Positions 27,562 to 31,067 of a stretch of 33,321 nucleotides of DNA are shown piece after piece. The first letter of the stretch is position 1. The number at the start of each line of letters is the position of its first letter. A model generated the notes under the pieces. That model was not told the origin of the DNA. It worked only from the letters and a program-made list of their open reading frames with translations, and did not search any database. The translations under genes and the position numbers were made by a program. Origin of the DNA: a virus (Duplodnaviria; Caudoviricetes); the IMG/VR virus record IMGVR_UViG_3300044676_005607, positions 1 through 33,321 of that record; one strand, 5' to 3'.

Positions 27562-27620
27562 GCATAACAGCCAATAAATAAGCATTGTGAAAAACAACGC
27601 TTTTTATTTTAGTGTTATTC
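27562..27620 (-). repeat. 59-bp imperfect palindrome, attC-like
   Basis: Minus strand GAATAAC ... GTTATGC with internal arms AATAAA/TTTATT, AAGC/GCTT, TTGT/ACAA. Confidence 0.5.
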
Positions 27621-27971: not shown

Positions 27972-27991
27972 AGTGTTATAATTTATTAGCA

Positions 27992-28053
27992 CGAAGATAA
28001 AACAAACTATTCAAATAAAAAAATTTTTATTCCAATTAAAAAAATTATATTTG
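27992..28053. promoter_or_regulatory. Divergent early promoter region
   Basis: Minus-strand TATCTTCG (27992-27999) and plus-strand TATATTTG (28046-28053) in an extremely AT-rich gap at the strand switch. Confidence 0.6.
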
Positions 28054-28503: not shown

Positions 28504-28713
28504 ATGAAATTAATGAACTTTTTTATCCAATCAGCAGAAGAACAATATTTTACTTTTATGGAATATGTCTATGATAGAATCCCTGAACCTGAAACACAAG
28601 AACAAGAGGAGGCAGTAGATAAATGGATTAGCAGTTTGCACTATCGGCAGTTTAGCCCTGAGCAAGCTGGCAAGATAATCACAAGAGCAATCAATATACA
28701 CTTTAATAAATAA
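28504..28713 (+). CDS. Small hypothetical protein
   Basis: 69 aa; AACACT-ATG start. Confidence 0.65.
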   Translation: MKLMNFFIQSAEEQYFTFMEYVYDRIPEPETQEQEEAVDKWISSLHYRQFSPEQAGKIITRAINIHFNK

Positions 28714-28717
28714 CACT

Positions 28718-29203
28718 ATGAAAATACAAGCAACATTAAAAGAGGCTAAAGAGCATCTTAGACAAAACTGGGACAAAGGAACAGGTTGCCCTTGTTGCGG
28801 TCAGCTAGTAAAGCTATACAAAAGAAAACTAAACTCCGGTATGGCAATCACTTTATTTCGTATCTACCAATATAACGGATTTAACCCTGTTCATGTAAAA
28901 GACTTTTTAAAAGATAACAAGCTAAGAAATAACCACGATTGGACATTGCTAAAGCATTGGGGTTTGTTAAAAGAGGAGTATAATGAAGATGAGGACAAAA
29001 AACACTCAGGGGTTTATCATCTCACACAAAAAGGGGTTTATTTTTTAACAACAAAGTTAACATTGCCTAAACATATTCTTATTTACAATAACAAGTTTCA
29101 GGGGTTTTCACATAATCTAACAACCTTTAGAGAATCATTAAGCAATAATTTTAGCTATCCTGAACTAATGCAATCCATTAACATTGAAATTAAAGACGTA
29201 TAA
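28718..29203 (+). CDS. Hypothetical protein with CPCC and a winged-helix-like region
   Basis: CPCCGQ.VK.YKRKL, LKHWGL, SGVYHLTQKG; AACACT-ATG start. Confidence 0.7.
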   Translation: MKIQATLKEAKEHLRQNWDKGTGCPCCGQLVKLYKRKLNSGMAITLFRIYQYNGFNPVHVKDFLKDNKLRNNHDWTLLKHWGLLKEEYNEDEDKKHSGVYHLTQKGVYFLTTKLTLPKHILIYNNKFQGFSHNLTTFRESLSNNFSYPELMQSINIEIKDV

Positions 29204-29296
29204 CACTACATTGAAATCGCAATTCAAAAGAACATGGGGAGGTAAAACTTTGGAAACATTCAAGGGCTGTTGTAGTGTTCAGCCCTCCCCTTTTTT
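29202..29296 (+). ncRNA. Structured RNA / attenuator-like element, copy 1
   Basis: AACACTACA pairs with TGTAGTGTT; GGGGAGG pairs with CCTCCCC; hairpin AGGGCTG/CAGCCCT; T6 tail. Confidence 0.55.
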
Positions 29297-29313
29297 AAAT
29301 CAAAAAAATACAC

Positions 29314-29321
29314 TATCTTGC
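29314..29321 (+). promoter_or_regulatory. Variant -7 element TATCTTGC
   Basis: Lies between the two structured elements, just upstream of copy 2. Confidence 0.4.
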
Positions 29322-29329
29322 GACAAGTA

Positions 29330-29435
29330 AAACGCCACAATGAAAAAGATATTTAGTAAAACAAATATACCTAAGAGGGTTAAAACATTGGCAGCAGCTA
29401 ATGGGGTTTCGTGGTGTTTCCAACCCTCTTTTTTT
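29330..29435 (+). ncRNA. Structured RNA / attenuator-like element, copy 2
   Basis: AAACGCCAC pairs with GTGGTGTTT; AAGAGGGTT pairs with AACCCTCTT; hairpin GGGGTT/AACCCT; T7 tail. Confidence 0.55.
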
Positions 29436-29448
29436 AAACTTAAAAACC

Positions 29449-30102
29449 ATGAAAGACACTTTTTACTTTAGTCACGATTACAACGCACGATCGGATGAGA
29501 AGATTAAGAAATTAATACGGAAACATCAAATGATCGGCTATGGAATTTATTGGGCAATCATAGAAGATTTGTATAATAATGCGAACGCATTGCAAACGGA
29601 TTACGAGGGCATTGCGTTTGATTTACATACTGATCCAAAAATTGTTAAGTCAATACTTAATGACTTTGAATTATTTGATTTTACTGGCGAATTTTTCTCT
29701 AGCTTATCGGTTAAGAAAAGACTAGAGTTAAGAGATGAAAAAAGTAGTAAGGCAAGGCAAAGCGCACAGGCTAGATGGTATAAAAACAAAGGGATTGATG
29801 CGAACGCAAAGCGAACGCAAAGCGATGGCAATGCTAAAAAGGAAAAGAAAGGAAAGGAAAAGAAAGGAAATATTATACCTCCTTTTGATGTTTTTTTAGA
29901 ATACGCTAAAGCAAACGATAGAAAGATTAGTCCGATGGGTGTGAAACATAAATACAATGCTTGGTTAGAAAATGATTGGAGGGATGGATATGATAAACCG
30001 ATTAAAAACTGGAAATCAAAACTACTAAATGCGTTAAAATACATCGATAAGATAAAAGAAGAAACAACGTGGCAGCAAACGGGCTTATTAGGTAATCAAT
30101 AA
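29449..30102 (+). CDS. Replication initiator, Lin1244/DUF4373-like N-terminal domain
   Basis: YFSHDYNARSDEKI...GYGIYWAIIEDLY; KARQSAQARW; C-terminal W.DG..KPIKNWK; start revised to ATG 29449. Confidence 0.8.
   Translation: MKDTFYFSHDYNARSDEKIKKLIRKHQMIGYGIYWAIIEDLYNNANALQTDYEGIAFDLHTDPKIVKSILNDFELFDFTGEFFSSLSVKKRLELRDEKSSKARQSAQARWYKNKGIDANAKRTQSDGNAKKEKKGKEKKGNIIPPFDVFLEYAKANDRKISPMGVKHKYNAWLENDWRDGYDKPIKNWKSKLLNALKYIDKIKEETTWQQTGLLGNQ
29798..29870 (+). repeat. Iteron-like and purine-rich repeats inside the initiator gene
   Basis: GCGAACGCAAA twice plus GCGATGGCAAT, then AAAGGAAAAGAAAGG twice; another GCGAACGCA at 29581. Confidence 0.55.
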
Positions 30103-31067
30103 TGATATACAAAATAACAGATAGAGCGAACGAAATAGCCGATAAAATTAAGCAGGGCTATGTTAAAGGATTACAAATGCCCTTTAAATGCATTGACGAT
30201 CTTTATTCTGTAAAGATGGGATGCGTTTCTTATTTTGTAGGGCATGAATACTCAGGCAAAACTGAATTTATTTTAGAGCGTGATGTTTGGCTTGCTAAAC
30301 AATTTAATCAAGTTAGTTTGATATTCACACCAGAAACTGGGGATGTAGATGATATATTTTTAGAGATTTGCCATAAGTGGTGCGGTAAACCATTGATAGG
30401 CAAGCACAAGATAAGCGAGGCAGAAAGGCTATCGGTAATGCAGCAAGTGGCTCAATACTTCCACGTTATCCAGGTAGATGATGAATTAACCTTTGATGCC
30501 TTAATTGAGGAATACAAGATATACGAATCACAAAACAATATCAAAATAAACCTTATCACTATTGATCCTTTTAACGAATTGCAATGGGACTTGAAAGGTT
30601 TACCAAGAGATATGTGGCTAGAGAATACGCTGGGTAAGGTAAGGCGAACTGCAAGAAATGAAAATATACATTTTACAATCATTACCCATCCGATAGAAAG
30701 CGATAGGCTTTACTCAAAAGAGGGTTACTTATTAGCACCAAGTAGAAAACAGTATGCAGGAGGTCAAGCATGGGCAAGGAAAGGCGAAAGCATGATTTCA
30801 ATACACAGACCTCATGTTGGCTTATCGGATGAGGCAGTAATGATAAGAGAAAACCAAATGCAGTTCACTATGCAAAAGGCAAAGCCAAAAGGAATCGGTC
30901 AATTAGGCATAGCAGATTTATACTTTGATTGGAAACGCTCTGCATACTATGAGGAAATAAACGGAAAGAATTATTATGCTGGCGAATATTATGCAAGCCT
31001 TTTAACCGATCCGCTAAAAGATACAAGCAATTTTGATTATTCACATTTAGAAGATAGCCCATTTTGA
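30102..31067 (+). CDS. SF4 (DnaB/T7 gp4-like) replicative helicase
   Basis: GHEYSGKT Walker A, ITIDPFNEL Walker B, IITHP, KAKPKGIG; acidic C-terminus ending DSPF. Confidence 0.8.
   Translation: MIYKITDRANEIADKIKQGYVKGLQMPFKCIDDLYSVKMGCVSYFVGHEYSGKTEFILERDVWLAKQFNQVSLIFTPETGDVDDIFLEICHKWCGKPLIGKHKISEAERLSVMQQVAQYFHVIQVDDELTFDALIEEYKIYESQNNIKINLITIDPFNELQWDLKGLPRDMWLENTLGKVRRTARNENIHFTIITHPIESDRLYSKEGYLLAPSRKQYAGGQAWARKGESMISIHRPHVGLSDEAVMIRENQMQFTMQKAKPKGIGQLGIADLYFDWKRSAYYEEINGKNYYAGEYYASLLTDPLKDTSNFDYSHLEDSPF

Follow-up and report, generated by a model that had tools for sequence, protein, structure and literature searches.

Tandem RNA elements with open leader frames upstream of a phage replication initiator and their possible role in its expression

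The whole stretch of DNA analyzed here (the window) is a 33.3-kb virus record in which genes for a terminase, a portal, an endolysin, Erf, NinG and an SSB are recognized, with no repressor or integrase recognized among the 49 window proteins scanned. The relatives of its replication initiator come mostly from Bacteroidota genomes, and the region is present in public runs of marine and estuarine origin. The two elements described below sit on the plus strand between a gene for a 161-aa protein of no assigned function (28718-29203, plus strand; phrog_2693) and the initiator gene (29449-30102, plus strand; PF14297, Lin1244_N/DUF4373; phrog_2562), which is followed by a replicative helicase-like gene (30102-31067, plus strand; phrog_18375 and phrog_239). 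An in-frame ATG at 29401 was rejected as the initiator start, as it is absent from the homologues, in which the start corresponding to 29449 is conserved. The near-identical loci L081 and L104 carry an in-frame 30-nt deletion (window 29469-29498) close to this start, which leaves an initiator of 207 rather than 217 aa with conserved residues lost and lengthens the second leader ORF (see below) to 45 aa. The sole plus-strand box of the Bacteroidota -7 type (consensus TAnnTTTG, taken from excerpts of the literature) between 26345 and 32165 lies at 28046-28053. This putative promoter heads a rightward early operon (28082-28504-28718-leaders-initiator) and is the likely source of the transcript that runs through the first element. 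It also forms one side of a divergent early promoter region, the leftward box of which (27990-28000, minus strand) is a one-base variant of the consensus. A scan for sigma-70 promoters and terminators listed neither element.

Each element comprises a site A directly before the start codon of a short leader ORF, a helix B:B' enclosing a loop, A', that is complementary to A, and a U-run. In copy 1, site A1 (29202-29210, plus strand) begins inside the stop codon of the 161-aa gene, lies directly 5' of the start codon of leader 1 and is a perfect complement of 29271-29279, with a computed duplex energy with loop 1 of -11.0 kcal/mol; no A1 variants are listed in four runs. Leader ORF 1 (29211-29330, plus strand; 39 aa), which starts with TTG, is open through the fold and the U-run and stops 9 nt before leader 2. 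An alternative leader-1 start at 29184, an ATG in the related locus L317, is weakened by contigs from two runs, in which the third base of that codon varies and the TTG at 29211 is unchanged. The copy-1 fold is a predicted three-way junction (29236-29296, plus strand; -21.8 kcal/mol, z -2.24) displaying covariation and a double change in L317. Its closing helix joins B1 (29236-29242) and B1' (29284-29290), which are complementary by eye, and encloses inner helices at 29248-29254/29259-29265 and 29266-29269/29280-29283, the loop of the latter being A1' (29270-29279). In the predicted fold the B:B' helix (-20.6 kcal/mol) directly abuts, with a gap of 0, the U-run of six (29291-29296, plus strand). 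The same region can form a local hairpin (29263-29286) of 7 bp and about -11.7 kcal/mol (z -2.95), which ends 4 nt short of the U-run. Copy 1 has no conserved promoter of its own; downstream of its fold lies a degenerate -7-like box (29314-29322, plus strand), one T short and spaced like the canonical box of the homologues, which is a candidate promoter.

In copy 2, the first position of site A2 (29330-29338, plus strand) is also the final base of the leader-1 stop codon; the site directly precedes the leader-2 ATG and pairs with 29411-29419 with one G-U, the computed duplex energy with loop 2 being -13.1 kcal/mol. Leader ORF 2 (29340-29471, plus strand; 43 aa) is again open through its fold and U-run, and overlaps the initiator start in another frame. 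A leader-initiator fusion by frameshifting at the U-run was discarded, since members differ in their frame offset (0, 1 or 2). The predicted copy-2 fold (29373-29435, plus strand; -19.7 kcal/mol, z -1.45) is homologous to that of loci L319 and L320, which have one copy-2 homologue apiece, preceded by a canonical promoter. It consists of a closing helix of the complementary B2 (29373-29381) and B2' (29422-29430), an inner helix (29386-29392/29397-29403), an open loop region with A2' (29407-29419) and a U-run of seven (29429-29435), all on the plus strand; the local hairpin at 29403-29427 is weak (-7.6 kcal/mol, z -0.29). A third site, A2'' (29446-29454, plus strand), spans the initiator start codon and complements loop positions 29407-29415 over 8-9 bp with one G-U (computed duplex energy with loop 2, -10.5 kcal/mol). 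At the family level the third site is significant (permutation p 5e-5), with each window copy ranking just 5 of 23; it reaches -10 kcal/mol or better in 8 of the 23 elements, and the 15 others, without a strong third site, nonetheless keep A:A' at the leader start. A box on the minus strand at 29362-29369 was considered as an opposite-strand promoter and rejected, such boxes occurring at the chance rate (51 versus 52 expected); by eye it is absent from the L317, L319 and L320 homologues.

Taken alone, each whole element has an ordinary folding energy relative to shuffled sequences (z -1.07 for copy 1 and -0.97 for copy 2), and the case against chance is therefore comparative. We compared the regions upstream of 266 initiator homologue loci, in 76 clusters. 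Covariation was measured on an alignment of nine sequences; they are related to each other, and site A is misregistered in two of them. Of the cells in the two helices, 91.8% pair and 20 have changed on both sides; none of 500 shuffles scores as high, and slid controls pair in 44-60%. This covariation upstream of homologous initiators bears out the view, taken in a preliminary description made from the window sequence alone, that the two copies are RNA elements of a control type carrying compensatory changes ahead of a replication initiator, and shows them to be conserved. The A/A' and B/B' pairings which it drew for both copies, the copy-1 hairpin, the position of each A at a stop codon and both leader ORFs are all present in the sequence; its copy-2 hairpin exists too, in the weak form noted above. 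Among the nine closest sequences the mean column identity is 62%, the invariant part being a short A-rich junction and scattered columns, and the U-runs are interrupted in several homologues.

Beyond these close relatives, the same order of promoter box, site A, B:B' enclosing loop A', U-run and next gene recurs with unrelated letters. All counts that follow come from automatic detectors, which missed members seen by eye (e.g. L204) and include some false positives. A detector anchored on the promoter finds the arrangement in 28 of 634 clusters versus 8 of 1268 shuffles, a 7-fold enrichment. The elements fall into two classes: A lies either in the loop of a 5' hairpin or directly before a start codon, and both window copies belong to the latter class. 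An ATG occurs within -1 to +3 of A in 11 of the 28 detected elements, against a background of 8.1%. Among 14 elements with an ATG at -3 to +12, 12 keep that frame free of stops as far as the end of the U-run (3.67 expected; 1/28 for the other frames), a feature of which the detector made no use, and the leader stop in those 12 lies -11 to +32 nt from the ATG of the next gene. The leader ORFs, which the preliminary description listed without building on them, are the best-supported functional feature of the elements. A second detector, blind to the promoter, returned 33 hits from 81,449 starts, some of them near-duplicates, and 23 of these have a promoter box within 45 nt (background 3.7%); the remaining ten are two window-type copies, copy 2 of L317, L119 and six probable false positives. 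In a pattern scan, five of 23 loci are elements by eye, one of them being the twin of the window. A covariance model (R1) proved sequence-driven, recovering only kin of its training set in 100 sources, and its single match in 151 Bacteroidota genomes was set aside, since it looks like a plain terminator.

The two largest initiator clusters (69 and 39 of the 266 loci) have a small gene in place of any such element, which is therefore optional. Likewise, no element follows the homologues of gene 28718 in L082-L085, the four viewed of 11, and cultured phages give only distant initiator matches, under 60% identity. The element also precedes genes other than initiators: the 47.5-kb phage G001 (L322, L323) has four leader-ORF elements (17315, 22202, 28292 and 39688, the last on the minus strand), heading four different operons with four different loop sequences, or addresses. 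In L099 and L114, the element of L055 precedes, instead of an initiator, a gene for a 127-aa protein that looks by eye like an HNH endonuclease, with the third site intact. The close hairpin-class homologues L004 and L154 differ by several letters swapped in both A and A', the pairing being kept. In L289, L306, L318, L321 and L179 the A:A' pairing is two-part or extended, reminiscent of the two-site pairing of C4 RNA.

The scan of all loci turned up tandem elements in the window lineage alone (L001, L081 and L104, together with L317). L317 has a helicase 99% identical to that of the window and retains copy 1 at 95.7% identity, including the C-G to A-U double change that keeps the pairing, though the copy-1 interior folds differently in its lowest-energy prediction. 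On the upstream side an unrelated 101-aa gene replaces window positions 28718-29203, and after 29322 the sequence is unrelated to the window, with a different copy 2 and an initiator of the DUF6291 type. The homology thus ends at the degenerate box (29314-29322), which marks the swap point of a cassette made up of copy 2 and the initiator. In both alleles leader 1 ends just before leader 2 (1 nt in L317, 9 nt in the window). Copy 1 persists amid exchanges of the upstream gene on one side and of the copy 2-initiator cassette on the other: run X2 contains, for either flank of copy 1, both alleles, and run X11 joins the window's upstream gene to an L317-type copy 2. Run X4 shows a third arrangement, which retains copy 2 and the initiator: between 28725 and 29284 it has 359 other letters, which do not match the L317 allele and take the place of gene 28718 and the greater part of copy 1. 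Across four runs, copy 1 has nine variant positions, of which seven fall in unpaired spacer and the other two make up the compensatory pair. The variants listed leave A, A', B, B' and the TTG untouched, and none creates a stop in the leader, the codons having been read by eye. One variant (position 1869) breaks an inner-helix pair in an L317-type copy 2. Two RNA runs, X19 and X20, yielded a small share in the form of scattered contigs.

In the predicted folds A' is unpaired, and therefore A:A' and B:B' can coexist. Since they can do so and B:B' touches the U-run, we infer an OFF state in which the leader start would be blocked and a terminator formed: loop A' would fold back on site A, and B:B', forming beside the U-run, would stop the RNA polymerase. 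In the putative ON state, translation of the leader would carry a ribosome across B, A' and the U-run, preventing both pairings, and the ribosome would then re-initiate at the next start after the leader. Taking from the layout how the region would be transcribed, terminated and translated, and in which direction it would be controlled, we propose that the two tandem leader RNAs make both transcription and translation of the initiator depend on ribosomes traversing the two leader ORFs, a reading to which we give a probability somewhat above one half (roughly 0.55). In the window this would amount to a relay from gene 28718 through leader 1 and leader 2 to the initiator. The overlap of A1 with the stop codon of gene 28718 would let copy 1 register translation of the early genes lying before it. 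Copy 2, which travels with the initiator, would add through its loop a second lock on the initiator start codon. This reading is favored by the recurrence of the layout with unrelated letters, the ATG beside A, the open leader frames, the promoter co-occurrence, the covariation, the placement of the copy-1 variants and the ending of leader 1 beside leader 2 in both alleles. Less favorable to it are the interrupted U-runs of several homologues, the TTG start of copy 1 and its lack of a conserved promoter, the small share of elements with a strong third site, the optional occurrence, the variant that breaks an inner-helix pair, the different copy-1 fold predicted for L317 and the relatedness of the nine aligned sequences. 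Also in its favor, passages of PMC6847099 describe Bacteroidetes as having no Shine-Dalgarno sequences and start-site structure as tuning initiation, and parts of PMC7366714 describe Bacteroides mRNAs repressed by RNA pairing over start codons.

A different possibility, which we regard as unlikely though worth spelling out, is antisense control in trans after the manner of the phage P4 CI RNA. Here the compact piece from B to B' would be set free as a small RNA and would bind, by its loop, the starts of other transcripts, namely six early genes and the leaders, and the differing letters would be specificity addresses. The starts at 28504, 28718, 27971, 26266, 26055 and 23974 indeed share one motif, which pairs with loop 1 at about -9 and with loop 2 at about -13 kcal/mol, and its 6-mer occurs at 5 of 209 window starts versus 2 of 4689 in related loci. 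The retention of copy 1 with both flanks exchanged, the four different addresses of the G001 elements and the lack of a recognized repressor or integrase among the 49 window proteins scanned would also fit. Against this, a second supporting phage was not found: own-genome matches of other loops are few (2/34, 1/42 and 1/17; 3, 5, 0 and 1 of 84), the loop 1 enrichment is modest (5/54 versus 16/588, Fisher p 0.025), loop 2 is promiscuous (10/54 versus 56/588), and the loops of L319 and L320 match the same early starts (6 and 8 of 54). Candidate trans targets in G001 were discarded, as the recurrent 6-mer there fell at ORFs that run antisense to real genes; in 12 other records, among 6-mers with at least two G/C, the most frequent reached a count of four in one record and three in another. 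The start motif also marks a gene-swap boundary (28725) and may therefore be a cassette junction from which A1 arose; it may likewise serve as microhomology for cassette exchange. It is confined to the early region (occurring also at 27610-27616) and is often fused to the previous stop codon. In the fullest version of the idea, which we hold to be equally doubtful, the released loop RNA would be an RNA-only repressor of the early program, pairing over the start codons of all genes of the rightward operon as far as the initiator and of four genes that point leftward, and its variable letters would be immunity addresses by which Bacteroidota phages can stack orthogonal switches, or swap them together with initiators.

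The preliminary description had proposed that the local hairpin is the terminator and that A:A' and B:B' make up a mutually exclusive antiterminator or ligand-sensing fold, an attenuator or riboswitch-like control. In its favor, the copy-1 hairpin exists (7 bp, z -2.95), its 3' arm overlaps B', and its pairing survives the L317 double change; that change, however, also lies in a helix common to both folds. The hairpin stops 4 nt before the U-run, which B:B' reaches, the copy-2 hairpin is weak, and the compatibility of A:A' with B:B' in the predicted fold, where A' is unpaired, speaks against mutual exclusivity. The riboswitch-like part is unsupported because the paired letters differ freely between phages: across 23 elements with unrelated letters, the conserved pocket nucleotides of a ligand-binding riboswitch are absent, no ligand pocket being evident beyond the short A-rich junction and scattered invariant columns. 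As this model further leaves the open leader frames unexplained, we consider it improbable, and what stands of it is the reality of the conserved RNA elements.

More improbable still is an activating role of A:A', as in the IncI/IncB plasmids, by which the pseudoknot would draw the loop off the third site and so free the initiator start in read-through transcripts. Passages of PMC8053102 describe the IncI1/IncB pseudoknot as essential for rep translation, a third site lies over the downstream start in 8 of 23 elements, and loop 2 binds A more strongly than the third site (-13.1 versus -10.5 kcal/mol); yet the 15 elements without a strong third site still keep A:A' at the leader start, and no conserved opposite-strand promoter was found that could supply the inhibitor. 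Finally, it is hardly credible that these are ordinary leaky terminators which cassette shuffling has duplicated and whose pairings and ORFs are incidental, for although each whole element folds no better than shuffles, the covariation, the 7-fold enrichment over shuffles, the open frames (12/14 versus 3.67 expected) and the promoter co-occurrence (23/33 versus 3.7%) all argue against it.

Searches with Rfam 15 gave no hits at the gathering threshold in the window, in 15 loci or in 17 loci (three loci being in both sets); the best sub-threshold hits, FopS (25.4 versus 56 bits) and GibS, are on the minus strand and match the complement of the start region. In attenuators of the E. coli pyrBI type the leader is translated through the terminator. 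The window elements resemble such attenuators, as sketched in parts of PMC5021804 and PMC4824070, in that the leader frame spans a terminator-like helix, so that a ribosome would suppress termination. They differ in having a leader start that is complementary to a loop of the fold, in letters that change from phage to phage, and in showing no evident feature for sensing nucleotides or amino acids. In P4 immunity, according to passages of PMC4825925, the CI RNA acts with seqA and seqC in premature termination ahead of the replication genes, and the related P1/P7 C4 antisense RNA-icd-ant system is described in parts of PMC8201110. As in P4 CI and P1 C4, the window elements have an RNA loop on the same strand with complementary sites upstream and, as candidates, often downstream, and A:A' covaries in both copies; early termination in front of replication genes is likewise predicted. 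In contrast to those systems, the antisense fold is itself traversed by a leader ORF and closes with a U-run of its own, and there is no match to the Rfam C4 model, a family listed in sections of PMC2864571 for Proteobacteria and their phages.

The other likeness is to the plasmid leader-peptide systems (R1 CopA/tap-repA, IncI1/IncB Inc RNA repY-repZ and IncI2 repR-repA), in which, as excerpts of PMC8053102 and PMC10724649 describe, the start of the initiator lies within the end of a short leader ORF, whose translation can be blocked by suitably positioned RNA pairing. By its sequence layout, leader 2 would be coupled to the initiator start in the same way. In those excerpts, however, the inhibitor is an opposite-strand counter-transcript and the pseudoknot activates, whereas the window has its complementary loop within the leader itself, on the same strand and together with a terminator-like helix, and the sole candidate for a counter-transcript promoter on the opposite strand is the rejected box at 29362-29369. 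The functional design would resemble a blend of P4 CI/seqA/seqC control and plasmid leader-peptide control of initiators, with membership in neither group. Among other parallels, the odc1 motif of alpha-proteobacteria joins a 5'-to-loop pseudoknot with a uORF (passages of PMC8632094). Parts of a 2023 catalogue (PMC10690425) give four candidate structured RNAs lying upstream of DUF4373/DUF1376 genes and, by the rows, within 25 bp of DUF4373 genes, DNAVirus_187 (49 nt, mostly from freshwater phages), DNAVirus_4548 (71 nt, from Bacteroidales phages), DNAVirus_704 and DNAVirus_4859; as compared by their catalogue rows, these come with no mechanism and are shorter than the whole element (about 95-130 nt). 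Sections of the main text of PMC5737381 contain no match to the element, and the supplements of either PMC10690425 or PMC5737381 may hold family members. We found no description of this element in the literature.

The element is thus real, uncatalogued in Rfam and a variant of RNA-based initiator control, whose mechanism we read from its layout. To our knowledge, little is known of how Bacteroidota phages set the dose of their initiators. To this the locus adds a leader-ORF class of elements, a putative tandem relay and a cassette swap, with natural alleles that exchange the address, the initiator family (PF14297 versus PF19808) and the upstream gene. It would represent a compact RNA design that unites, on a single strand, translational coupling, a terminator-like helix and a leader ORF whose start is blocked by its own RNA. 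If the loops do act in trans, they would constitute a new RNA immunity code and may offer orthogonal switches for a phylum that operates without Shine-Dalgarno control.
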